Positions 29,690 to 62,954 of a DNA stretch of 64,000 nt are shown here, piece after piece. The stretch's first letter is position 1, and each line of letters begins with the position of its first letter. The DNA comes from an uncultured Candidatus Saccharibacteria bacterium (lineage in GTDB: Bacteria > Patescibacteriota > Saccharimonadia > Saccharimonadales > JALRHH01), in assembly GCA_964590315.1 (NCBI GenBank), contig CAZPVS010000002.1:2693-66692 (forward strand). The letters run 5' to 3'. The notes under the pieces are model-generated. The model was not told the DNA's origin. It saw only the letters and a program-made list of their open reading frames with translations, and did not search any database. The translations under genes were made by a program, and so were the position numbers.

Positions 29690-31210
29690 TTAGAAAACGC
29701 GGACTCCTTTCGATTGGAGGAAGCGGATAGGTTCGAGCGAACCTTTACCCCCTGCTCCGCTTCCTTGAACACACAAGCTGATGTCGGTACACACCGTAAA
29801 GTGCAGGTGAGCACCCGTGGAGTAGCCGGTGGAACCGACGCTCCCAAGGGGCTTGCCAGCACTGACAGTGCTACCCTTGCTGATGCCATCAGCAAACGCG
29901 CTCATGTGAGCGTACAGCGTTGCAACGTTACCGTGATCGATGATCACGTAGTTGCCCCAGGCACTGCTGTACTCTGCTCGCTCGATTCTGCCACCGGCTG
30001 CGGCATATATCGGGGTACCAGCAGAGGTGCTCATGTCGGTGCCGTTGTGAAAGCCAGGTGCTCCCGTTACTGGATGGAAACGGAAGCCATAGCTGTCGCT
30101 GAGTCGGTAGCTGAAGTTTTTGAGGGGGGCTTGCCAGGCACCCGTGTACTCTCCGCCACCTGCTTGACTGATGCGTAGGCCGCCCATGAAACCCTGGTTG
30201 TAGTACATGGACTGCACGAGCACATCAGACTTACTGTTCGCCGCATTCAGGAGCTGGTCGTTGCCGAGGTACATCCCGACGTGGTAGATCCCGCTCTGAG
30301 TGCCATCGCTGGACCAGAAGACAAGATCACCGCGCTGGAGCTCCTCCCGGCTGACGTGACTGGTGGTGATACCAGCCTCCCGGTCCCCCGTGTATCCCCA
30401 CTGCTCACGAGAGGTTCGTGGCAACGTGAGACCCGCCTTATCGAACGCCCAGAGCAGGAGTCCCGAGCAGTCGAAACCACCCGGCTCAGTGCCTCCCCAG
30501 ACATAAGGCGTGCCGACGCGTGACTTGGCGAACTCAATGGCTCGTTCCACGATGTCCGACGAACCCTCGCTGCTCACGCAACTCATGTCCGCGGTGATCG
30601 TCTGGGAGGGGCCGCCTGTGTTGGTGAAGTTCAGGCGTCGGGCAATGGCTGCCGCCTCGTCCAGATGAGGGTCATACGCCTCCGGGTGGCCAGAACGCTG
30701 TACTGCCTGCGCCACGTCTCCGTAACCCCGTGTCTGCCAACCTGGTACGGTCAGCATAACGTCGAGGAACTTATTCGTGGCGTAGGTTACGTCCTGCACC
30801 TGTGCGTCCGTACCCCACCCTTGGCTTGGCCGTTGCTGCAACCAGCCCTTGCTATCCCGGTCACCGTAGTCCAGATTTCGAAGTGTCGACTCCTGGATGC
30901 CCGTGATGAGCAAGATGACCAGAACGCGGTACAAGGGTGTGTCCCCGAAATCACCACGGCGGGCATGCACGACTGCGGCAGCCTGACGGACGACTTTCAT
31001 CTGATCCGCCTGGATAACCGCGTCTTTGACTGTTAGGACGCCGGAGCCGACTGAGACGCTCTCCGGGTCGGAGGACACCAGAAGACTGTCGTCAGTCTGG
31101 TCTCCGCACAGCACTTCTGGGGGCGGCGTACTGAACATCATGAGGCCCATGACGAGTGCGAATGGCACGATCAGCACGAGCGACATGATTCCTACTACGG
31201 AACGTCTCAC
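29690..31210 (-). CDS. Secreted multidomain cell-wall hydrolase: unassigned N-domain + NlpC/P60 + M23 peptidase
   Basis: 506 aa with an N-terminal TM/signal. NlpC/P60: GTPYVWGGTEPGGFDCSGLLLWAF...IYHVGMYLG. M23: FHNGTDMSTSAGTPIYAAAGG...GNYVIIDHG...STGYSTGAHLHFTV. Confidence 0.8.
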   Translation of the reverse strand: MRRSVVGIMSLVLIVPFALVMGLMMFSTPPPEVLCGDQTDDSLLVSSDPESVSVGSGVLTVKDAVIQADQMKVVRQAAAVVHARRGDFGDTPLYRVLVILLITGIQESTLRNLDYGDRDSKGWLQQRPSQGWGTDAQVQDVTYATNKFLDVMLTVPGWQTRGYGDVAQAVQRSGHPEAYDPHLDEAAAIARRLNFTNTGGPSQTITADMSCVSSEGSSDIVERAIEFAKSRVGTPYVWGGTEPGGFDCSGLLLWAFDKAGLTLPRTSREQWGYTGDREAGITTSHVSREELQRGDLVFWSSDGTQSGIYHVGMYLGNDQLLNAANSKSDVLVQSMYYNQGFMGGLRISQAGGGEYTGAWQAPLKNFSYRLSDSYGFRFHPVTGAPGFHNGTDMSTSAGTPIYAAAGGRIERAEYSSAWGNYVIIDHGNVATLYAHMSAFADGISKGSTVSAGKPLGSVGSTGYSTGAHLHFTVCTDISLCVQGSGAGGKGSLEPIRFLQSKGVRVF

Positions 31211-31225
31211 GAGAAATCACCTCCT

Positions 31226-31789
31226 TCAGGGTCTCGTGACCTCGTATACGAACCAGTTACCAGCTTCCCGGACCCACACCATCTCGTAGACGGAGCGGTA
31301 AGCTGCCTCACTGGATCCGTCAGGGTAGGACTTGGTCAGCGTGAGGGTTATGGAGCCCTCGGCAGTTTCTGGATCGATTAGTTCCCCCTCGAACCCGTCT
31401 GCTACCTCGGCGCTCCAACTCGCTTCCTCTTGTATGACCTCTGTATCCAGCTCGGGGTCGAACCCAAACTGGCCGGTCTGCAGAAAGTGGTCCGTAGCGA
31501 ACCGGGCTACCTCTGCCATCGCTTCTTCAGCGCTCTCCGCGGTGTCCCGCGAGAAGTACGCTTCAGAGAACGCTTCAGCCCGAAGCTCAAGAGTGTTCTT
31601 GGACTTGGACAGCTCCTCAGGATCCCTCTCCGCACGCGCGGGACTGTTGCTAGCTCCCGCGCGTGCGGTCTCAGAGGGTGAGGCCGGGTCGTCCGAAGGA
31701 CTGCTCTCGGGCCAGAACCACAGGACGACAGCCGTCACGACGAGGAACGCCGTGATCAACGTCCATAGTCGCTTAGGCCACCGCCTCAT
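31226..31789 (-). CDS. Membrane-anchored acidic hypothetical protein of the T4SS cluster
   Basis: 187 aa. N-terminal TM (LWTLITAFLVVTAVVLWFW). Overlaps the upstream ATPase stop by 17 nt. Confidence 0.6.
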   Translation of the reverse strand: MRRWPKRLWTLITAFLVVTAVVLWFWPESSPSDDPASPSETARAGASNSPARAERDPEELSKSKNTLELRAEAFSEAYFSRDTAESAEEAMAEVARFATDHFLQTGQFGFDPELDTEVIQEEASWSAEVADGFEGELIDPETAEGSITLTLTKSYPDGSSEAAYRSVYEMVWVREAGNWFVYEVTRP

Positions 31790-33296
31790 CAGGCTTCACC
31801 TGACCTTTCTGGTATTCCTGCTCAGCGCGCTTGGCACGCGCCCGAACATCGTCCAAGGTGTAGGCGTTGACACGCTCTCGCATGCGTCGAACCACACTGT
31901 TGGTGTCGATGTCCTGCAGGATGGAGGGGGGAATGATGTTCTGCAGCCACAGGACCGGTTGTTCGCCGATCTTGAGCGCGTAACAGCCCTGCTGGAGCCC
32001 CGTCGTCAGGAACGCGTCCTCGTCGGACAACCTGACGGTGTTCACCAGGTAATCCAGTACGTCGGGGTCGTAGGGCTGCCGGAACATCGCTCGGAGGGTC
32101 ACGCCCATGTTGATCGACTTGGCGAGCTGCCGGATTTCGGAATCCGGGTGGCCCACCAGGTTGAGCTGTCGACCGAACTGGGTCAAACCGATGTCGACCA
32201 TGTGGAAGGCCCGGGATTTCCTCGACAGGTTGTCCAGCGCTCGCAGGTAGGCGGCGCTTTCGAAGTCTGCCTGGATTTCCTCAGACACCCGCAGGTGCGG
32301 CACGAGGTCGATCCGGTTGTGAACGAGTGCGAAGGTGAGCCACCCGTTGTAGAAGGTGTCAAACGCCTCTCTGGTCTGGGCCGACATGCGGCTCCGGTCG
32401 ATCAAGACTGCACGACCACTCAACTGCTGGTGCAGCGAGCTTCCACCACCAAAGGCGTTGTCGAACTCCTCACCGGTGAAGCGGGTCATGACCGAAGCCA
32501 TGGTCGCCGCGGCGCGAGCGAACTCGTCCTCGGGCAGGTTCGAGCTCTTGTTGCCCAGTGCCTCCAGTTCGGCGATGAACGCGAGGTCTCCCTCCACGGT
32601 GCCATTGCTGGACTGAGTGAGCATCTCGCGCGCTTGCTCCACGAGCGACGTGTGGCGCTCGGCGTAGAACTCCTCCGCGTCGGACTTGGTGAGACCGTTG
32701 AAGATGTCACCCAACAGCTCCGGCTTGGCCACCCTTCTGAACTTGTGGAACATCAGAGCGGTACCGACCAGAGCCGCCAACGCCTCGTAGCCCTGCGGCT
32801 TCCGCTTGAGGACCAGCTCGGCGATGGTACGGGTCTTGTCGACCATCGAGATGAGGTCGTTGAGCTCCGGGTCGTACGGGTTGATCTTGCGATCTCCCGC
32901 CAGCGGGTCGATGATCTCACCGCCGATTGACTCGAAGACATCCTGCATCTCGGGCCGACCACCTTCAGGCTTGCCGTCGAGGCCAAGTGTTCTCAGCCAA
33001 TGCGGCCGTCCCGTCAGGGGGTCCACACCCGCTTGCTTGCCGGCGGCCATGCGGATCCGGTACTTGACGAAGCTCGACTTGCCACTCTCACGGACACCGT
33101 CGACTCGCCACATAGTGCCGTTGATGATGCCGAGCTCTCGGAGCTCCATCTCGTCACCGCAGTACCAGCACTTGGTCTCCATGTTGAGACCCCACGGCTC
33201 CCCGGTGTCGGTCCCCGGATGCGGAGCACTGACGAAGGGCTGCCACAGAGCTGCTGTCCGTGGGGTACCCTTGAAGGTACGACTCTCCTGGGGCAT
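31773..33296 (-). CDS. VirB4/TraC-type T4SS ATPase, C-terminal (NTPase) half
   Basis: 507 aa. Walker A GVRESGKSSF, late KSRAFHMVDIGLTQ (RK...TQ-type motif), Walker-B position reads HLRVSEE. RBS GGAAAGGAG. Confidence 0.6.
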   Translation of the reverse strand: MPQESRTFKGTPRTAALWQPFVSAPHPGTDTGEPWGLNMETKCWYCGDEMELRELGIINGTMWRVDGVRESGKSSFVKYRIRMAAGKQAGVDPLTGRPHWLRTLGLDGKPEGGRPEMQDVFESIGGEIIDPLAGDRKINPYDPELNDLISMVDKTRTIAELVLKRKPQGYEALAALVGTALMFHKFRRVAKPELLGDIFNGLTKSDAEEFYAERHTSLVEQAREMLTQSSNGTVEGDLAFIAELEALGNKSSNLPEDEFARAAATMASVMTRFTGEEFDNAFGGGSSLHQQLSGRAVLIDRSRMSAQTREAFDTFYNGWLTFALVHNRIDLVPHLRVSEEIQADFESAAYLRALDNLSRKSRAFHMVDIGLTQFGRQLNLVGHPDSEIRQLAKSINMGVTLRAMFRQPYDPDVLDYLVNTVRLSDEDAFLTTGLQQGCYALKIGEQPVLWLQNIIPPSILQDIDTNSVVRRMRERVNAYTLDDVRARAKRAEQEYQKGQVKPDEAVA

Positions 33297-33516
33297 GACA
33301 CACGCTCCTTTCCGGGCGGTATCTCTATCAGATGTGTTTTCCTGTTAGGTTGTTAAGGTACGTGATGCGGTTGTCGCACCTCAGTATTACCATTAAGCGT
33401 AATAACAATACTGAAGTGTGTAACTGCCCCGGAGGATTATGAAAGCTCAGTAAAGAGCCAGCAATATCCTCCGGGGCGAGTCGCACCTCATTCGCTGGAT
33501 TTTGGTCCAGCTACGT

Positions 33517-35085
33517 TTACAACAGGGCTAGGGCGGTGGTAGAGCTCCACAAGGATGGGTACTGGTAGTCCCCGCCCTCGATGAGCTCACCGGAGAGGCC
33601 AAGGCCTTCGACAAAAGCCTCGAGGGCTTCCAGTTCGTCCTCGCAGACATCGTGTGCCGTGACCGTTCGGGTCTTGCCGTCCTCGTCGAGGAGGAGGCGA
33701 TCCGCCGTACGGACTGCAACCAAGATGCTGTAGGACTGACTGAACTGACTCGCAAACAGCGTGTCTCCTCGTTGGTTGAGGCGCTCGCTGCGAGCTGTCG
33801 ACTTCCTGGTCTCCACCAGTCCGAGCCAGTCAACGAATCCCTGAATGAAGTTGCTGCCAACTTCAATCCAGTGAACCTCCCGGTCGCTCCTGACGGCTTC
33901 GCCGACGAGTGCAACACTGGGATAGCTGACGGGCAGGTTCGCCATGAACTCCTCACGGAAAAAGCCTTGCCAGACCCGCTCAGGTGCACCCGTGATGCGG
34001 TACACCTTCGTCACGGTTCCGTCCGTGAGGCTGTCCTTGTCGGAGACGACCATCTTCTCGTCCGGCCAGTGGGACACCACGTCATTCCCGCCGTCCACGT
34101 CCGCCTTGGCGTAGTACTCCTGGATCTTGGCGATGTCCCAGGCGCCTCTGACGAACGCATGCAGGCCGGACTCGTTGAGTGGCTGCGGATTGGAAACCCC
34201 GCACGCGCGCAAGTGTTGCTGAGCGGTCGTAACGATCTTTGCCACCGGAAGTCTCCGGAGGTGCCGTTCGCTGATGAGTCCGCTCTCCTGCGCCTTGGCG
34301 AAGCTGCCTTCCCGCTTGATGGTCAGCACGGTTGCCATCCACGGCTTGCGGCCGTATTCAGGCATGATCTGCCGCATCTCCTCCCATGGCTCAGCCATGT
34401 TCAGAATCGCCCGGTCTTCGTCCGTCAGCTCGTCCTCGTTCTTGAAACGAGCTTCCGGGTGGACCAAGTCGGGATGCAACAGATACCCAAGCGCATTGTG
34501 CAGATGCGTCTCGTCAAAAGGATCTTGACGGAAGACGTACCCAACGCCCAGGCTGTAACCGCGCTGCTTGAGAGCGGCCCGCTTGACCATCGTCTCGAAG
34601 TTGCTGTAGGCACGGTCTTGACCAACGAGTGACTGCGACGGGATAGTTGAACCTCCCCCCTCAATCACCACGCTGAGACTGTTGTCCTGCAGGTTGTAGA
34701 GCACTGCCGTCTCCGGCGTGTTCCTCCCCGCTGGGACGCTCGTCACCCAGAACGGAATGACGGTCTCATTGCCCTTGGCGTCCTTCTTCTTGACGCGGAT
34801 GACCTTCTCCTCGTCGAAGACGATGCCCTTGCGGACACGAACACGGAACCAGCCGCGTAGTCCTCGAACAAAGATCCGGTACATCCGTGCGCGGTTGCGC
34901 CGTACCATCAGACCAAACCAGACAAGTGCCAGTCCAGCCTGGGGCAAACTCCCGTAGAAGTTTCCGACGATGAAGCCGATGGCGATGACCGCAATAGTCA
35001 GTTTCCAGTCGCTTCCGCTAAACCGGAAAAAGCCTACGTCGAGCCGGGACGGATGGAGCTCTTCATGAGCTTCCTGTGTGATCAT
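33517..35085 (-). CDS. VirB3/VirB4 N-terminal-like membrane protein (resembles the actinobacterial SCO6880-type family)
   Basis: 522 aa. Two N-terminal TMs (WKLTIAVIAIGFIVGNFYG, AGLALVWFGLMV), then a large soluble domain. Located immediately upstream of the ATPase half. Confidence 0.5.
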   Translation of the reverse strand: MITQEAHEELHPSRLDVGFFRFSGSDWKLTIAVIAIGFIVGNFYGSLPQAGLALVWFGLMVRRNRARMYRIFVRGLRGWFRVRVRKGIVFDEEKVIRVKKKDAKGNETVIPFWVTSVPAGRNTPETAVLYNLQDNSLSVVIEGGGSTIPSQSLVGQDRAYSNFETMVKRAALKQRGYSLGVGYVFRQDPFDETHLHNALGYLLHPDLVHPEARFKNEDELTDEDRAILNMAEPWEEMRQIMPEYGRKPWMATVLTIKREGSFAKAQESGLISERHLRRLPVAKIVTTAQQHLRACGVSNPQPLNESGLHAFVRGAWDIAKIQEYYAKADVDGGNDVVSHWPDEKMVVSDKDSLTDGTVTKVYRITGAPERVWQGFFREEFMANLPVSYPSVALVGEAVRSDREVHWIEVGSNFIQGFVDWLGLVETRKSTARSERLNQRGDTLFASQFSQSYSILVAVRTADRLLLDEDGKTRTVTAHDVCEDELEALEAFVEGLGLSGELIEGGDYQYPSLWSSTTALALL

Positions 35086-35110
35086 GGGGTTTCACCTCCT
35101 TGGTGATCGA

Positions 35111-36349
35111 TTACCGTCCCGGCTTGTGGGTGGGCGGTAGGGGTTGTGTCTTCTCACGTCCAGGTATGGAGTGAGTGACGGGCAGCTCGGGCTGCTTGGG
35201 CTCTACGGGCGTGTGGATGGGCTTCGCGGCACCATTTGTTGCCGGAGGACTAGCCTGCTTGCTCGGCGGAGACTTGGAAGCCTGCACTTTGCTCGCTACG
35301 GCTGTTCCAGCGGCTGCTGAGGTACCTCCAGTTGCGGCTACCGCCCCAACCTTCAATGCCGTGCCCGTCTTGTCCAGCACCTTCTTACGGATGCGGGACT
35401 TGCCTTCTTCCGTGAGCTTGGAAACCTGAGAGGGCTGCTTGGCGCTGACCCTGCTCTGGTTGACGTTGTTCGCGTCGACCTTGCCTCGGTTGTTGACGGT
35501 GGCGTCCACGTTACCCTTGACGCGCTGCGTGAAGGATCCTCGACCCCCCGTCATCTTGACTGTCTGACGGTAGGTGAACTTGAAGAGGCGTGACTGCAAC
35601 CACAGACCGGCAATGAAACCTGTCATGGTCATGATCACAACCCCGAGTGACGAATCACCCAGTTCGGTATCCCCCAGCATCTCTGCGATGTCAAGGCAGA
35701 GGATCATGAGCGGCCGTCCGAAAATCATCGTGACGAACGCTGCACCGATCATACCGTCGCAGAGGGCTCCGTTCTTGTCGGACAGCGGTCGAAATGCCAC
35801 TATGAGCAGCCCGCCGTACTTGACGGCGAGGTTGTACAGCTCATACGCGAACACCACGACCAGCATGCATCCGCCCAGGAACGCAGTGGGAGCAAACGCT
35901 GCGGCTACGATCAGCGGGTTGTCGCTCGCGACACCCATCGACAGCCAGCTGCGGCTCCCGCCCTCAGCGTCGTAGAAGTCGGCCTTCTCGCTCAGGATGT
36001 CGCCCACCGAGATCATCACATCGATCAGGTAGAACCAGATCGGCCATGCGGCAGTGATGAAAACCCCGATGACGATGGCATCGAAGAACTGGTAGATCCG
36101 GGATGACCGGAACATGACAATGCACGCCAGGATGATTGTCAGCAGGTAGGCGACGAAGCCTGACAAGCCGAGCACCTCACTACCGAAGTAGTCAAGTGCC
36201 GCCATGTTGTCCGCACGAGGCGGGTGCATGGCGAGCTCCTGGAAAGCACCGACGAACTCTCGGTAGGCGTCCTTGACCAAATCAGCGAACATGCTGAACG
36301 GATCTGGAAAATCGCCGGGCCAGAGGTCAATCTTTGGAGCGACGATCAT
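35111..36349 (-). CDS. VirB6/TrbL-like polytopic T4SS membrane protein with Ala/Pro/Lys-rich tail
   Basis: 412 aa with at least 6 hydrophobic helices, then a low-complexity C-terminus (AATGGTSAAAGTAVASKVQASKSPPSKQASPP). Confidence 0.5.
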   Translation of the reverse strand: MIVAPKIDLWPGDFPDPFSMFADLVKDAYREFVGAFQELAMHPPRADNMAALDYFGSEVLGLSGFVAYLLTIILACIVMFRSSRIYQFFDAIVIGVFITAAWPIWFYLIDVMISVGDILSEKADFYDAEGGSRSWLSMGVASDNPLIVAAAFAPTAFLGGCMLVVVFAYELYNLAVKYGGLLIVAFRPLSDKNGALCDGMIGAAFVTMIFGRPLMILCLDIAEMLGDTELGDSSLGVVIMTMTGFIAGLWLQSRLFKFTYRQTVKMTGGRGSFTQRVKGNVDATVNNRGKVDANNVNQSRVSAKQPSQVSKLTEEGKSRIRKKVLDKTGTALKVGAVAATGGTSAAAGTAVASKVQASKSPPSKQASPPATNGAAKPIHTPVEPKQPELPVTHSIPGREKTQPLPPTHKPGR

Positions 36350-36416
36350 GAGAACTCCTTTTGGTCATTCCCCCGTCCAGGACTTTCTTTGCCTGGACGG
36401 GGGCGGGACGATCAGG

Positions 36417-36737
36417 TCAGCAGGGGGAGCTGACCGGGTTGATGCCGCTGTTCAGGATGATGGCGAACACCACGATCCCGATGGCTCCCCCGATCAGGTT
36501 TCCCCTGTGGTTCTTCAGGAGGACAGCACCGAGCGCGAGCGCTGCGATGATGACCACGAAGAACACCTGCCCGAGGGACAGGGACAGGCCGATGAAGTTC
36601 CCGATGGGCTGGTTGAGCTCGCCCATCAGATCCCTGGACCAACCGCATCGGGGCTCGATGTCGGCCTCGAACGGCATGGCCATGGTGATGTAGAAGTGCA
36701 GCATCTGACCCTGGACGTACGTCAGGAGCGTCGTCAT
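36417..36737 (-). CDS. Small two-TM membrane protein (pilin/VirB2-position candidate)
   Basis: 106 aa with a strong SD (AAAGGAGGTG). Two C-terminal helices (LSLSLGQVFFVVIIAALALGAVLL, IGGAIGIVVFAIILN). Chosen over the overlapping alternative-frame ORFs. Confidence 0.45.
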   Translation of the reverse strand: MTTLLTYVQGQMLHFYITMAMPFEADIEPRCGWSRDLMGELNQPIGNFIGLSLSLGQVFFVVIIAALALGAVLLKNHRGNLIGGAIGIVVFAIILNSGINPVSSPC

Positions 36738-36750
36738 GACGCACCTCCTT

Positions 36751-56950: not shown

Positions 56951-57013
56951 AATGATTTAAAGGGAATGAGCAACAGCGCGGGTAAATACCGCACGGATTG
57001 CTATAATACGTAC

Positions 57014-57523
57014 ATGAAGAATGTAACCATTGTCCTTTTAGTTTGCGCGCTTGGCATCCTAGGATTCTTGCTCTATGCAAACGAAGATCCAGCAACTACA
57101 TCCACCGTATCCACGCCTACTGAATCAGCACCGGCAAAAACAACAGGAAAAGAAGTCAACCTTTCTAACAAGAATTTGGACAAAATCTCAAAAGATATCC
57201 TCGATGATACATCCGTAACTATACTTAATGTGAGCAATAACAACTTGACCGGTTCCCTGCCTGGGGAGATCAGAAAATTGACCAACCTCGAGGTGCTGAT
57301 TGCGTCGGACAATAACATGACTGGAATTCCTGCTGAGATTGGCCAGCTGGGCAAGTTGAAAGTTGCTAATTTTGCGAATAATGACTTGTCTGGCCTGCCT
57401 CTGGAGCTTGGCAACTTACGTAATCTTGAAACGCTTGATTTGCGTGGCAACCCCGATATATCCAAACACGATATAGCGCTTATCCAAAAAGAAATTCCCA
57501 ACGCTCAGATCCTTGTCGATTAG
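57014..57523 (+). CDS. Membrane-anchored leucine-rich-repeat protein
   Basis: TM MKNVTIVLLVCALGILGFLLYA, then 5-6 LRRs (LxxLxLxxNxLxGxLPxEI pattern). Confidence 0.7.
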   Translation: MKNVTIVLLVCALGILGFLLYANEDPATTSTVSTPTESAPAKTTGKEVNLSNKNLDKISKDILDDTSVTILNVSNNNLTGSLPGEIRKLTNLEVLIASDNNMTGIPAEIGQLGKLKVANFANNDLSGLPLELGNLRNLETLDLRGNPDISKHDIALIQKEIPNAQILVD

Positions 57524-58282: not shown

Positions 58283-58531
58283 TCAAGTGAGTGCAATTCG
58301 TGCCAGGGATGCGATAGCTATGACGGCCCAGAATAGATTCAGTAGCACCGTCTGACGTACTTTTTTGATCAGTGATATTATTATGATCCCTATCGCTCCG
58401 GTGAGGTTAAGCAGCTGGTACAGACTGCCATCAGCTGCTATCACCTGAAAACTTACCAGAGCGTACGCCCCGACAATTGCAGTAGTCCCATACCACCCCA
58501 CTATCTCCGGGATATTTATTTTTCGTGCCAT
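58283..58531 (-). CDS. Small 3-TM membrane protein (CBU_0592-like)
   Basis: MARKINIPEIVGWYGTTAIVGAYALVSF... The start lies 6 nt after TGCTATACT. Confidence 0.5.
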   Translation of the reverse strand: MARKINIPEIVGWYGTTAIVGAYALVSFQVIAADGSLYQLLNLTGAIGIIIISLIKKVRQTVLLNLFWAVIAIASLARIALT

Positions 58532-58623
58532 ACGTAGAGTATAGCAAAGCAAAACTCTGCTTTTCTCAGGAAGATACCTGCTTGTTTTCGAATTGATTGT
58601 TAAACTCGATTTCATCCAGCGAG

Positions 58624-58971
58624 CTACTGGGGAATCAATCCAGAATCAAAACTAGCAATGATTATCTGAGCAATAATTATCGAAGCAGTATAGACCAGCA
58701 TAAATAATAAAATACCCACGGACATCTTACCTACTCTGCCGTCGTGGACCGTAGAGATAGCCCCGCGACTCTTAGCAAATCCAACAATAGAGATAATCAG
58801 AAACACCGCACTAACTGCGATCAGCGCCTTGGCCTTCAATAACTCATATTCAGGATATCTAGTATATGGTTCTGGATATGCATAAAATTTTGCGACAGCA
58901 GTAACCATTGTCATTAGAAAAACAGGTAAAGAAATAGTGCTTGCGGTAAATACTGTAAGTGGATTTTTCAT
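58624..58971 (-). CDS. Small polytopic membrane protein
   Basis: 115 aa with four hydrophobic helices. Confidence 0.5.
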   Translation of the reverse strand: MKNPLTVFTASTISLPVFLMTMVTAVAKFYAYPEPYTRYPEYELLKAKALIAVSAVFLIISIVGFAKSRGAISTVHDGRVGKMSVGILLFMLVYTASIIIAQIIIASFDSGLIPQ

Positions 58972-59589: not shown

Positions 59590-60453
59590 CTACTTTGCCT
59601 GCAGCCGTAACATCTCTTCTTCATACCAGTCGGGAACTTCTGCAATACCGTAATATGGGTTTTCACTCCCAGAAACATACTCAGAAAGCGGATCACCTTT
59701 TCCATAGTGCCAGATTTCTTGTGGGTTTACATACAGACCGGCTTTTTCGGTCATAGCGTAGTACAGAACTCTTCGCCCCAGAACTACTTCACTACCTTCG
59801 GGCTCTACTGGAGTTTGCTCTACTGAATTTATGATATCGCTCTGGCCTTCAATCAAGTGATAACCTTCATGAAAGTCTGGATAAGCTGTGCCCTTTACTG
59901 CCCCGCCCTTGTGGCCTCGGTCAAAAGGCTCGCCCGTTTCTAGATTAATAAGCGCAACGTCAACTGCTCCACCAGTTAAATGAGGCGTAGGTGTCGGACG
60001 ATCGCTTGGACGAGCGCAGTAGTTCGGTACTTCACTTGCAACCTCTTGGTCTGTCATTCCTTGATTCATACTCTTTATCACCATTGGCCAGGCAACCTCA
60101 AAGGCAAACTTTTGCACTTGATAAGGTCGTAGGGCGTCATCAATACGAATATGAGCGGGAGCTCCAAGATACTCACGTACCTCCCTGTCATTCCGTAGAT
60201 AATCGTCCGCAAGTACAAGCCGTCTTGCAACGTCTAGCCGTACAAGTGGCGCATCAGGGACACCCGGTAAGGTCTCTCCCGTCATTCGATTTGGCTTAGA
60301 ATAGTAGCTACTGGCATCTTCAAAACCAAATTCAGATTCTCGAGGGTCAACGAGAGGGTCGTTATGCAAAGGATGCTCAGTATCTATCTCACGCCGAATG
60401 TCGTAACCATCCTTATGCGCCCTTAACGCAGTAAAGTTCGGTACCTGATTCAT
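59590..60453 (-). CDS. M15-family metallopeptidase (VanX-type D-Ala-D-Ala dipeptidase-like)
   Basis: 287 aa. PHLTGGAVDVAL (HxxxxxxD zinc motif) and EIWHYG near the C-terminus. Confidence 0.6.
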   Translation of the reverse strand: MNQVPNFTALRAHKDGYDIRREIDTEHPLHNDPLVDPRESEFGFEDASSYYSKPNRMTGETLPGVPDAPLVRLDVARRLVLADDYLRNDREVREYLGAPAHIRIDDALRPYQVQKFAFEVAWPMVIKSMNQGMTDQEVASEVPNYCARPSDRPTPTPHLTGGAVDVALINLETGEPFDRGHKGGAVKGTAYPDFHEGYHLIEGQSDIINSVEQTPVEPEGSEVVLGRRVLYYAMTEKAGLYVNPQEIWHYGKGDPLSEYVSGSENPYYGIAEVPDWYEEEMLRLQAK

Positions 60454-60509: not shown

Positions 60510-61190
60510 CTAGCTCACGGGGTTTGCAACTCTTTGTTGGGCGGCTCGGTTAAAAACAGCAATCTGAGTATTCCGAACGAAAGTCGGACCTGTAAGCTGT
60601 TCAATGTCTACTGAATAATCTTGGTACCGGCTTGTAATGTTCAATGCCCAATCCTGAAACTCTGGTACGTCCCATTCGAAATAATGGCCGCGTGCTGCTA
60701 ACTGCTCTTCGTTGAGTCGTTTCGTAGCATCGGGAGTAGAGACAATTACGAGGTCAGGTGTAATATGATTGAAAACTCCATCCTCTATTAGCGATACTTC
60801 ATGCCGAGGGACATGCTCAATTGTCTCTAACATAACTACGGCACCAAGATGACGGAATAGCCCAGGTTTATCTACTACAGTCTCTAGGCCCGTCATTGAA
60901 CCTTCGATAAAGGTAAGCCAGTCTTCTGCACTTGCTAGGTCTGATTCAGCGGTATCTATACGTTCTTGCCACGAGTCGATACCTAAGTATCTTTCAAACC
61001 GTAGGTCGTTACTTATAATCCGTTTCACTAATGCGCCGTCGCCACATCCGAGGTCAATAACTGACTGTATACCATTTACCGTTAATGCGTTAATCACGGC
61101 GTCCATACGTAAGCCATGGTTATAGACTGCGAGTTCAGGAAAAGTTCCCGTAGTATGTAACGCTGGTAGTTCTGATATTGGAGTAGACAT
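60510..61190 (-). CDS. Standalone Hen1-like methyltransferase domain (3'-terminal RNA ribose 2'-O-methyltransferase family)
   Basis: Start at MSTPISELP. RMDAVINAL..VIDLGCGDGALV..YLGIDSW..VVMLETIEHV..VIVSTPDA..HYFEWDVPEFQDWA..YSVDI..TQIAVFNR parallels the Hen1 MTase layout (LDLGCG, EVIEH, TPN, FEWTR.EF..WA, QMAVF.R). Confidence 0.55.
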   Translation of the reverse strand: MSTPISELPALHTTGTFPELAVYNHGLRMDAVINALTVNGIQSVIDLGCGDGALVKRIISNDLRFERYLGIDSWQERIDTAESDLASAEDWLTFIEGSMTGLETVVDKPGLFRHLGAVVMLETIEHVPRHEVSLIEDGVFNHITPDLVIVSTPDATKRLNEEQLAARGHYFEWDVPEFQDWALNITSRYQDYSVDIEQLTGPTFVRNTQIAVFNRAAQQRVANPVS

Positions 61191-61431
61191 AAAAAAACAA
61201 AATACCACATCTCAGGCATTTTGTAAAACATAAGCGTTATGACTCCTGGGGCGAGATTATTGTATATAACCTGCAGCCATGCTCGATGCAGGCATCTGCG
61301 CGGGGCTTTGCTTATCGAACTCGCCTTACGGGCACCGAGTTCGATCTGGCTCAGGGGCAAAAGAAAACACCCCCAAATGGAGGTGCTTTCTATTGGCTCC
61401 CACTAATAAACGACTTCCGAACCAAGAGCCA

Positions 61432-61596
61432 CTAATTAGATCGAATTGAGTGTGCTTGGCGAGAAACTGTTTTTTGGTCGGCGTAAGCACGTTTAATAGC
61501 ACCACTAAGTACGCGAGCAGCAGCTCGTGAAGGTTTTGGTGAGGCAATGTCACTTAAGGTGACCTTAGGGCTGATAATTGATTTAATCTTCATCAT
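61432..61596 (-). CDS. Unannotated 54-aa basic ORF immediately downstream of the zeta-like kinase
   Basis: Own translation: MMKIKSIISPKVTLSDIASPKPSRAAARVLSGAIKRAYADQKTVSRQAHSIRSN. Weak RBS. Below the track cutoff. Confidence 0.3.
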   Translation of the reverse strand: MMKIKSIISPKVTLSDIASPKPSRAAARVLSGAIKRAYADQKTVSRQAHSIRSN

Positions 61597-61606
61597 ATAA
61601 GTACTC

Positions 61607-62275
61607 TCATGTTATCACATTCTCTAATTGTTCTTGTGTAAGAAATTTGGGTAACTCTGCAAAAAGATCAGGAACGTTTTCAACACGTCTACCTTCCCTA
61701 TTATTCTCATCCTTTACAATTAAACTTATTGTAACATCTTTATGCCTATTACACAATTCCCTTAAGTTTGATTCAAGTTTAAGATATGTCTGTATGAACT
61801 CATCTCTATCTATAGCGCGGTGTTCAAGTAATTCCCGGTCTTTCGTAAACTGCCACGCAACTTCTGGAAGTTGAAATATAAAATAAATTTTAACCTTGTA
61901 ACCTCTATGGAGGGCTCTTTCTAAATTCTGAATGGCACGCCCATGAGAAAAAGTACCGTCAAAGACAAAATCAATTCTCTTCTTGATGGTCTCATCGTAT
62001 ATTTTTCCTAAGATTACCCCTGCACCACCACGAAACTTATTTGCTAGTTCTGGTTTATAGTCTTCCATCAATGTGGCAATCTCGTCCATATCAATTCTTA
62101 AAGGCTTATCAGATACATCCTTAAGGAGTTCGACCGTAAATTCTGTTTTTCCAGCACCAGGTAAACCGGCCATAAATATTCCCGTAGGATACTCTTTGCT
62201 TATAAAGTCTGTCTTACGGATAAATTCGCGAGCAATTCGTTTTCTGTTCTTATTTGCCCATTCCATGTAGTCCAT
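61607..62275 (-). CDS. Zeta-toxin-family P-loop kinase
   Basis: 222 aa. GIFMAGLPGAGKTEF (Walker A) and DFVFDGTFSH. Overall layout matches PezT/zeta-like kinases. No upstream epsilon-type antitoxin ORF. Confidence 0.65.
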   Translation of the reverse strand: MDYMEWANKNRKRIAREFIRKTDFISKEYPTGIFMAGLPGAGKTEFTVELLKDVSDKPLRIDMDEIATLMEDYKPELANKFRGGAGVILGKIYDETIKKRIDFVFDGTFSHGRAIQNLERALHRGYKVKIYFIFQLPEVAWQFTKDRELLEHRAIDRDEFIQTYLKLESNLRELCNRHKDVTISLIVKDENNREGRRVENVPDLFAELPKFLTQEQLENVIT

Positions 62276-62372: not shown

Positions 62373-62954
62373 ATGATATCAATATACTTTGCAACTTCAA
62401 ATAAGGAAAAAATACAAATTGCTCAGACCGTATGTGCGGAAGCGAGCTTAACTGTTCAGCCAGTTTCATTAGACATTGACGAAATTCAAGGTGAAGATCC
62501 TGAGGTAATTGTACGTGATAAAGCGCAGCGGGCTTATGAGCAGCTCGGAATGCCTGTTGTGGTTAGTGATGACACGTGGGACATACCGGCACTGAAAGGC
62601 TTCCCTGGCGCTTATATGAAATCGATAAACTACTGGTTTACCCCGGATGATTTTCTAAGACTCATGGAAGGTGTTGATGACAGAAAAATCATTCTGCATC
62701 AGTATCTCGCCTACACAGATGGAAGTGTGACGGAAGTTTTTAAAAATGATATACCAGGCCAAATCATCAAAGAAGCACGTGGCGAAAGCGAAAAATCTCC
62801 AAATATGACAGTCACCGTTCTTGATTTCGACAATGGCAAAACCATTGCTGAAGTATTTGAGCAAGGCGAAGAAGCTGTAGTAGCCCGCTATAAAAACCGT
62901 CCAGATGCATGGCACGGCTTTATTGAATGGTATAAAAAATATCCAGTAGCGTGA
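62373..62954 (+). CDS. Ham1/RdgB-family non-canonical purine NTP pyrophosphatase
   Basis: IYFATSNKEKIQIA and VVSDDTWDIPALKGFPGAYMK. Confidence 0.75.
   Translation: MISIYFATSNKEKIQIAQTVCAEASLTVQPVSLDIDEIQGEDPEVIVRDKAQRAYEQLGMPVVVSDDTWDIPALKGFPGAYMKSINYWFTPDDFLRLMEGVDDRKIILHQYLAYTDGSVTEVFKNDIPGQIIKEARGESEKSPNMTVTVLDFDNGKTIAEVFEQGEEAVVARYKNRPDAWHGFIEWYKKYPVA

Follow-up and report, generated by a model that had tools for sequence, protein, structure and literature searches.

The DNA analysed here is a 64-kb window from an uncultured Candidatus Saccharibacteria bacterium (the window is the whole stretch of 64,000 nt, and features and neighbours were assessed within it unless stated otherwise). 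Near one end of the window are four co-oriented minus-strand open reading frames (ORFs) that encode proteins of 222 aa (62275-61607), 54 aa (61596-61432), 226 aa (61190-60510) and 287 aa (60453-59590). The 222-aa protein is a P-loop kinase of the zeta/PezT family and the 226-aa protein is a standalone Hen1-family methyltransferase dependent on S-adenosylmethionine (SAM), whose ATG at position 61190 agrees with the homologues. The 54-aa ORF, which codes for a basic mini-protein with an isoelectric point (pI) of 11.5, starts 10 nt past the kinase stop codon. A spacer of 241 nt separates this ORF from the methyltransferase gene, and 56 nt separate the methyltransferase gene from that of the 287-aa protein. 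An earlier reading of this DNA, made from the sequence alone (the sequence-only reading), proposed that kinase and methyltransferase form a minimal pair acting on RNA ends, or alternatively an atypical toxin-antitoxin-like pair.

The 226-aa protein contains the motifs VIDLGCGDG, MLETIEHV, VIVSTPDA, HYFEWDVPEFQDWA and TQIAVFNR. These had been taken as the layout of a standalone Hen1 methyltransferase, and the assignment is borne out by domain models, by profile searches and by structure comparison. The NCBIfam model for bacterial Hen1, TIGR04074, matches with E = 3.7e-27 over model positions 267-461 of 462, at 95 bits against a full-length cut-off of 340 bits. Since the match is confined to the C-terminal half of the model, the N-terminal ligase-activating domain of approximately 260 residues is truly absent, as the sequence-only reading had also held. 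Pfam shows only generic class I methyltransferase domains near threshold, and NCBIfam UbiG is a marginal match (6e-7, 29 bits against a 103-bit cut-off). A single-sequence search of the PDB gave Hen1 proteins only, those of Anabaena at E = 3.4e-18, of C. thermocellum at 3.3e-17, of human (HENMT1) at 3.9e-15 and of Arabidopsis (HEN1) at 1.9e-6. The entries 3jwh and 3jwg, both Hen1 methyltransferase domains, are the matches at 3e-18 to 3e-17. When a family profile made of the window protein and 18 relatives (19 aligned sequences) was used, the Hen1 domains of Anabaena, C. thermocellum, human and Arabidopsis were found at 3e-54 to 3.5e-33 and the divergent Hen1 of the Pnkp1-Rnl-Hen1 complex (4xrp) at 6e-13, with the best non-Hen1 methyltransferase at 5e-10. 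Other solved methyltransferases thus trail the human, plant and bacterial (Anabaena, C. thermocellum) domains by at least 20 orders of magnitude in E-value, and 4xrp by about 3.

The residues of the active site are conserved. Bacterial Hen1 and its eukaryotic relatives share a metal site whose ligands are E796/E799/H800/H860 in plant HEN1 and E132/E135/H136/H181 in the human protein, and in plant HEN1 this tetrad holds the 2′,3′-diol of the terminal ribose (PMC10781085). In the window protein the corresponding residues are E122/E125/H126/H169 (ExxEH...H). They are invariant in 19/19 aligned sequences and align with the human tetrad, which lies in the HENMT1 motifs IELIEH and HKFEW. The SAM-binding motif I is V-I-D46-L-G48-C-G50-D-G52, with D46, G48, G50 and G52 invariant in the 19 sequences, and the acidic residue after strand 2 (G70-I-D72) is conserved in at least 90% of them. 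The AlphaFold2 (AF2) model has a mean confidence (pLDDT) of 86.9, and when it was compared with the PDB by Foldseek, ranks 1 to 11 were all Hen1 methyltransferase domains (E = 1.7e-15 to 8e-11). The immediate family has in addition its own N-terminal motif, LPALHTTGTFPELA. PADLOC and PHROGs were uninformative, with marginal matches only to mad2 (2.9e-4) in the former and to phrog_4752 "tRNA methyltransferase" (2.2e-6) and phrog_25145 (1e-8) in the latter. The 226-aa protein is a Hen1-family methyltransferase domain and nothing else.

An exhaustive search of 1.84 billion representative proteins gave 421 proteins at E <= 1e-30. The 150 best representatives were pooled with the 19 proteins of the first homologue search into 168 distinct sequences, of which 79 are shorter than 300 aa (67 of these start with Met) and 75 have at least 400 aa; it should be noted that the query profile of this census was itself built from short forms. 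In a midpoint-rooted neighbour-joining tree of the extracted domains, which is rough because it rests on crude BLOSUM distances, 60 short proteins including that of the window form one contiguous group, and the Hen1 proteins of about 460 aa lie apart. From this grouping the methyltransferase appears to be part of a clade of single-domain Hen1 enzymes from bacteria that is sizeable and uncharacterised. The immediate family within it is small. It consists of 11 clusters at 55-100% identity, after which identity falls to 35%, and database labels of the close relatives are generic or ubiquinone-type methyltransferases only. A metagenome scan with the 11-member alignment matched four stretches by pattern, none of which was confirmed, and no homologue of the methyltransferase is present in the phage collection.

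No Pnkp-like protein adjoins the methyltransferase in the window or at seven independent loci of its homologues, nor is Pnkp found near more distant single-domain relatives, which lie behind a suf operon (Tistlia) or in a gene trio in Burkholderiales. The trio is conserved between two Rubrivivax-like sequences (L016, 3663-5759; L019, 1777-4036). Its genes encode a class I methyltransferase (303-332 aa), a small protein (122-136 aa) that in one of the two has a DksA/TraR zinc finger, and the Hen1-like enzyme. At one metagenomic contig a heliorhodopsin gene lies 1.5 kb downstream of a methyltransferase homologue (L014, 2376-3137).

The window protein resembles bacterial two-domain Hen1 in the homology of the methyltransferase domain (3e-18 with the single sequence, 3e-54 with the profile), in SAM motif I, in the ExxEH...H site and in predicted fold. 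However two-domain Hen1 has an N-terminal ligase-activating domain of approximately 230-260 aa and an adjacent, co-oriented pnkp gene for a kinase-phosphatase-ligase, whereas the window protein has no such domain, and its gene is flanked by a zeta-like kinase module and by the gene of a VanX-like peptidase. It also falls into the separate single-domain clade, with TPD in place of TPN and a shorter loop. The methyltransferase is thus a variant Hen1, a domain that occurs without the bacterial partner domain and without Pnkp. In bacterial Hen1 activation of the Pnkp ligase is the sole function of the N-terminal half, and the C-terminal half is an autonomous Mn-dependent 2′-O-methyltransferase of the 3′-terminal ribose (PMC3675462). 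Since the isolated C-terminal half methylates autonomously, the lone domain of the window is expected to be catalytically competent. The animal enzyme HENMT1 (5wy0, 4xcx), which 2′-O-methylates the 3′ ends of piRNAs, offers a second comparison. It is essentially a lone Hen1 domain that acts on 3′ ends of single-stranded RNA and has no double-stranded RNA-binding domains; its metal tetrad aligns with that of the window protein and the profile matches it at E = 1.5e-35. Differences are that HENMT1 is eukaryotic, works with PIWI proteins and has only about 25% identity to the window protein in the structural alignment. To our knowledge, no bacterial small-RNA pathway needs methylation of the HENMT1 type.

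By these comparisons motif I would serve to bind SAM, and E122/E125/H126/H169 would hold a divalent metal. This metal would most likely position the 2′,3′-diol of the 3′-terminal ribonucleoside of a single-stranded RNA, and the methyl group would be transferred to O2′. The methyltransferase would act alone, as do the isolated bacterial Hen1 C-terminal domain and HENMT1, with no coupling to ligation. The predicted outcome is an RNA 3′ end that resists 3′-exonucleases, tailing and transesterifying ribonucleases or re-cleavage. A substrate other than RNA should also be considered, i.e., a cis-diol or hydroxyl of a nucleotide, a cofactor or another small molecule. This would suit the lack of an RNA-repair partner at the loci of the single-domain relatives examined, where the neighbours are sortase, MarR/DUF4383, a suf operon, DksA/TraR and a class I methyltransferase, as well as the generic or ubiquinone-type labels of close relatives, the TPD motif and the shortened loop. 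However the metal tetrad that is specific to Hen1 (PMC10781085) is invariant, the profile sets Hen1 domains apart from all other solved methyltransferases, the UbiG match is marginal, and the isolated Hen1 C-terminal domain methylates RNA with no partner (PMC3675462). We consider a non-RNA substrate unlikely.

The kinase (222 aa, 61607-62275, minus strand) matches Pfam Zeta_toxin (PF06414) with E = 4.6e-29, at 101.7 bits against a 22.3-bit cut-off, and AAA_33 with 2.3e-6. Its AF2 model (pLDDT 91.7) has its best Foldseek matches in PezT (2p5t) and zeta (1gvn, 3q8x), with E = 3e-9 to 7e-8 and template modelling (TM) scores of 0.65-0.74. Weaker matches are AvrRxo1 (E = 4e-5), gonococcal zeta1 (in the range of about 1e-5 to 1e-4) and the C. 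thermocellum polynucleotide kinase (about 1e-3). Walker A is present as G37-x-P-G-x-G-K43-T, and in the profile alignment with zeta K43 corresponds to K46, D64 to the catalytic base D67 and D106-G107-T108 to E116-G-T118, all of which are conserved. The Zeta_toxin match, like the Hen1 matches of the methyltransferase, is much stronger than chance would give. This domain match and the predicted fold clearly point to a zeta/PezT-like and not a Pnk-like kinase, and in this the sequence-only reading was correct. It was also correct in noting that an epsilon antitoxin is lacking: no epsilon/PezA-like match was found by Pfam or NCBIfam among the neighbouring ORFs, and the gene upstream of the kinase is a divergently oriented Ham1.

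Differences from the epsilon/zeta and PezA/PezT systems (1gvn, 3q8x, 2p5t) are found next to the shared Zeta_toxin domain, fold, Walker A Lys, catalytic Asp and E/D-G-T. In those systems the antitoxin gene lies upstream, whereas the partner of the window kinase is a basic protein of about 55 aa, unrelated in sequence, that is encoded downstream. Zeta and PezT have 253-287 aa, as compared with 222 aa for the window kinase, and identity is 15-17%. Zeta contacts its substrate UDP-N-acetylglucosamine (UDP-GlcNAc, UNAG) through R120, E100 and T128, besides D67 (PMC3062530). In the hidden Markov model (HMM) alignment R120 falls in a deletion, E100 is opposite a variable Gly and T128 is opposite the invariant N117, but at about 17% identity this alignment is unreliable for single residues. 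Since R120 and E100 have no counterpart in it, a toxic UNAG-3-kinase activity cannot be assumed for the window kinase. This gives only a hint from aligned residues that the substrate may differ from UDP-GlcNAc.

Relatives of the kinase form more than 424 clusters with identities from 88% down to about 50%, and those with a source name are all Candidatus Saccharibacteria/Saccharimonadales, which places the window in a TM7-type Patescibacterium. No paper that combines a zeta toxin with Saccharibacteria was found in the literature, and a Saccharibacteria transposon-sequencing (Tn-seq) paper with its supplements makes no mention of zeta-like genes.

The 54-aa ORF (61432-61596, minus strand), whose existence between the two genes had been pointed out before, belongs to a real conserved family. 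A homologue is found directly 3′ of the kinase in 8/8 genome loci of kinase relatives (9/9 with the window); two of the eight are too diverged for tblastn but can be made out when aligned. The mini-protein family counts 110 clusters with lengths of 41-77 aa, every one annotated as "hypothetical", and no model of Pfam or NCBIfam matches its proteins. The sizes of the longest contigs, taken as a proxy for shared contigs, show that at least 48 of the 119 distinct values from the 120 listed kinase clusters recur among the mini-ORF clusters. A further assay was made with 70 metagenome kinase loci whose sequence continues for 200 nt or more past the kinase. The mini-ORF HMM matched downstream in 35/70 of them, and after three iterations in 69/70 at E <= 1e-3. 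As a control, other small ORFs from the same loci were scanned, and only 1 of 2149 matched; that one is also situated downstream of a kinase, in a locus excluded for its short flank. The metagenome mini-ORFs usually overlap the stop codon of the kinase; in the median they begin 3 nt ahead of the last nucleotide of this codon and have 61 aa. The mini-proteins are uniformly basic (median pI 10.1) and share a C-terminal motif like A-x-[KR]-[KR]-A-N-x-D-Q. The mini-protein is the conserved partner of the kinase.

In Saccharibacteria and in further metagenomic lineages kinase and mini-ORF form a conserved cassette with coupled translation, and the pair is also found outside of Patescibacteria. On the Shewanella putrefaciens plasmid pSA70-4 (CP078041.1, 1465-2376) the gene of a "zeta toxin family protein" precedes that of a hypothetical protein of 54 aa, which the mini-ORF HMM recognises at 5.9e-11; integrase-type genes are on the flanks. 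On an Enterococcus-associated phage-like contig (OR846638.1, 1489-2324) a 33%-identical kinase is followed by a 55-aa ORF that matches at 1.9e-6; the kinase on this contig appears frameshifted. The genes that flank the kinase cassette differ at every locus examined. Tight coupling, non-conserved flanks and a plasmid copy fit a mobile two-gene addiction or regulatory module, and kinase and mini-protein together are a plausible candidate for a toxin-first zeta branch that has not been described before.

This gene order has a precedent in AvrRxo1:Arc1, in which the toxin gene comes first and the antitoxin, a small binding partner, is encoded downstream (PMC4938570). AvrRxo1, a zeta-family NAD kinase toxin (4z8v), is comparable in this order, in the small downstream partner and in the Foldseek match mentioned above. 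However AvrRxo1-like proteins, with 378-893 aa, are much larger than the window kinase, and the match is weaker than those to PezT and zeta. Arc1 has 81-121 aa and the signature KExFD(x25-27)(Y/L)ExxYY, which is found in 0/69 of the mini-ORFs tested.

In the window, kinase and mini-protein (62275 to 61432, minus strand) would most likely constitute a toxin-first kinase/neutraliser or a kinase/regulator pair. The kinase would move a phosphate from ATP onto a hydroxyl substrate, with D64 as the base, and this substrate need not be UDP-GlcNAc. The basic mini-protein, made by translational coupling, would probably bind and restrain the kinase. Alternatively, the two may be a vertically inherited housekeeping kinase and its small accessory or regulatory subunit, part of a metabolism of the Patescibacteria type. 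The hundreds of kinase relatives, with named ones from Saccharibacteria and a gradual decay of identity (88% to about 50% among clusters, 76% to 42% among species representatives), are consistent with this, as are the two of four zeta UDP-GlcNAc contacts (R120, E100) that have no counterpart in the HMM alignment, and the absence of a PADLOC defence-system match of note. However the flanking genes differ at every locus, and the pair is found on the Shewanella plasmid between integrase-type genes and on the phage-like contig. Toxin-antitoxin systems typically combine a small partner with such a tight overlap of stop and start, and AvrRxo1:Arc1 shows that the toxin-first order is viable (PMC4938570). 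The housekeeping explanation is a serious one, yet we hold it to be doubtful.

Co-occurrence of the kinase and the methyltransferase was assessed from both sides. For the kinase, eight species representatives (42-76% identity, 6-kb flanks) were used together with eighty metagenome loci (31-87% identity, flanks of up to 4 kb), the latter probed with 11 diverse Hen1-type queries that include full-length Hen1. A Hen1-like gene is present at 0/8 of the genome loci and 0/80 of the metagenome loci (0/88). For the methyltransferase, relatives of 56-73% identity gave seven independent loci (L002/L003, L004, L013, L014, L015, L104 and L105), and the kinase is present at 0/7 of them. Apart from the methyltransferase itself, no gene of these seven loci has a counterpart in the 64-kb window. 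Five of the loci have usable upstream sequence, and there the methyltransferase is preceded by DUF4383/MarR, an FAD oxidoreductase, a 2H phosphoesterase, a 59-aa ORF followed by a sortase, or an unrelated ORF. The relative in L002, which occurs without the kinase, is from a Saccharibacterium, as judged by its SmpB, which is 72.5% identical to the SmpB of the kinase locus L005.

The sequence-only reading had held that the proposed pair would fall if its two genes never co-occurred elsewhere, and at the other loci examined they are never found together. The adjacency of kinase and methyltransferase in the window is best explained as coincidental. As the minimal kinase-plus-methylase RNA repair pair fails, the locus is not a new system. 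In that proposal the pair would heal and mark RNA ends, the kinase by phosphorylating 5′ ends and the Hen1 domain by methylating 3′ ends. It would account for two adjacent, co-oriented genes, and the P-loop superfamily does include polynucleotide kinases, of which CthPnk is a weak match (E of about 1e-3), with AAA_33 at 2.3e-6. It could also draw on the 2H phosphoesterase genes described below. However the adjacency is unique to the window, the kinase has more than 424 clusters as compared with 11 in the methyltransferase clade, the kinase is zeta/PezT-like (4.6e-29; 3e-9) rather than Pnk-like, and a stable hairpin and the 241-nt gap lie between the two units. We regard an RNA-end pair as highly improbable. 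The methyltransferase as the antidote of the kinase is still less credible. The proximity of the two genes in this one window would be its basis, but 88/88 other kinase loci have no Hen1-like gene and nearly all have the mini-ORF, and methyltransferase relatives occur without the kinase. This gene distribution already refutes the antidote role. Of the proposed toxin-antitoxin-like pair, the small ORF as partner of the kinase stands, and the methyltransferase falls outside of the module.

Genes for 2H phosphoesterases (PF13563; 2′-5′ RNA ligase superfamily) are found in 4 of approximately 100 loci. One lies directly after the kinase cassette (L005, 6972-7490), and an apparent orthologue is divergent from a methyltransferase homologue at a distance of 23 nt (L015, 1245-1856, minus strand). 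Weaker 2H genes are situated 2-3 kb from the kinase in L006 (113-679) and from the methyltransferase in L013 (2442-2933). When the window and about 90 other loci, among them the 80 metagenome kinase loci, were scanned with an HMM of these four proteins, no 2H gene was detected, which argues against the RNA-end pair. One possible reason for the 2H adjacency is that small accessory enzymes (NUDIX, HD, Ham1, 2H, kinases) cluster where these reduced genomes are variable.

The intergenic region between the mini-ORF and the methyltransferase gene contains a hairpin with a U-rich 3′ side (61354-61400, minus strand), a candidate terminator of the kinase module. Its folding energy is -25.1 kcal/mol (z = -4.2), and 0/200 shuffled sequences are equally stable. 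A terminator role is suggested by the RNA fold, and is put forward with reserve because a scan for consensus terminators did not list this hairpin among its sites. Just before the methyltransferase start are weak promoter-like hexamers, TTTACA-17-TATTTT with an upstream TG (61199-61227, minus strand). In the consensus promoter and terminator scan of the region the site counts are not above those of shuffled sequence, so that the hexamers are compatible with a separate transcription unit and are no proof of it. Hairpin and hexamers together are compatible with separate transcription of the kinase module and the methyltransferase. Rfam and tRNA scans of the window revealed no RNA gene near the locus, and only two tRNAs, at 14.4 and 21.3 kb.

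From the above, the locus is likely to consist of two unrelated units that are neighbours within a variable stretch of a Saccharibacteria genome, one being the kinase with its mini-protein and the other the single-domain Hen1. Several observations weigh against parts of this interpretation. The Saccharibacterial methyltransferase clade has TPD where other Hen1 proteins have TPN, and the loop that follows is shortened, by 4 residues relative to distant standalone relatives and by 5 relative to Anabaena Hen1. For single-domain bacterial Hen1, the suggested RNA substrate is an extrapolation from the two-domain enzyme and HENMT1. Within Saccharibacteria the kinases become steadily less similar as taxonomic distance grows (76% to 42% identity in the species representatives), and because of this smooth decay a vertically inherited housekeeping kinase has to be kept in view. 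The basic mini-protein has no detectable similarity to epsilon, PezA or Arc1, and its neutralising role is a guess. Finally, the 2H adjacency is the one observation that leaves a faint possibility of a link in RNA-end processing between kinase and methyltransferase.

The remaining neighbours are given as context. The 287-aa protein (59590-60453, minus strand) displays a weak likeness to M15/VanX D-Ala-D-Ala dipeptidases (Pfam Peptidase_M15, E = 2.5e-4, under the curated cut-off) and an HLTGGAVD motif, and its gene is possibly co-transcribed with that of the methyltransferase. As an operon partner of the methyltransferase it was rejected, because no homologue accompanies any methyltransferase relative, save on an identical contig (L001). 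On the other side, a Ham1/RdgB-type non-canonical nucleoside triphosphate (NTP) pyrophosphatase gene (62373-62954, plus strand; Pfam Ham1p_like E = 9.7e-18, NCBIfam PRK14821 E = 3.1e-25) is divergent from the kinase gene across an intergenic region of 97 nt. A Ham1-like gene is also found 2.8 kb upstream of the kinase in L007, and near the kinase in 1/80 metagenome loci.

Just beyond the locus (56966-57523, plus strand; 58283-58971, minus strand) are genes for a leucine-rich-repeat protein of 185 aa, secreted or anchored in the membrane, and for two small multi-pass membrane proteins of 110 and 115 aa that have no Pfam match. Leucine-rich-repeat and small multi-pass membrane proteins are typical of Patescibacteria surface-protein regions. 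Elsewhere in the window an 8-kb island (29690-38115) has about 60% G+C, as compared with about 39-51% for the genome. It contains six large minus-strand ORFs. The one at 29690-31210 encodes a peptidoglycan hydrolase in which NlpC/P60 and M23 are fused, and for the remaining five (187-522 aa) Pfam gives no match. The island may have been horizontally acquired, or may be a secreted-effector or cell-surface locus.

The locus may mean more than a chance arrangement of two genes, in that each could represent a family of its own that is as yet uncharacterised: a phylum-spanning toxin-first kinase of zeta fold with its mini-protein of about 55 aa, and an autonomous single-domain bacterial Hen1 that marks specific RNA 3′ ends. 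We put this forward tentatively, as the less probable outcome. Fainter still is the possibility that the kinase cassette, the 2H phosphoesterase and the Hen1 domain are interchangeable parts of a Saccharibacteria RNA-end-processing island. The kinase, with its strictly conserved downstream mini-protein, is a testable candidate for a new toxin-first zeta branch that is abundant in Patescibacteria. Single-domain Hen1 is common in bacteria: among the 168 best Hen1-like representatives, roughly every second one has fewer than 300 aa, and these short forms group together. Identification of the RNA that such an enzyme methylates would carry bacterial 3′-end 2′-O-methylation beyond the repair of ribotoxin damage and, if the RNA-marking role is true, the single-domain Hen1 clade would be a bacterial counterpart of piRNA and miRNA end-methylation that operates without a repair ligase.

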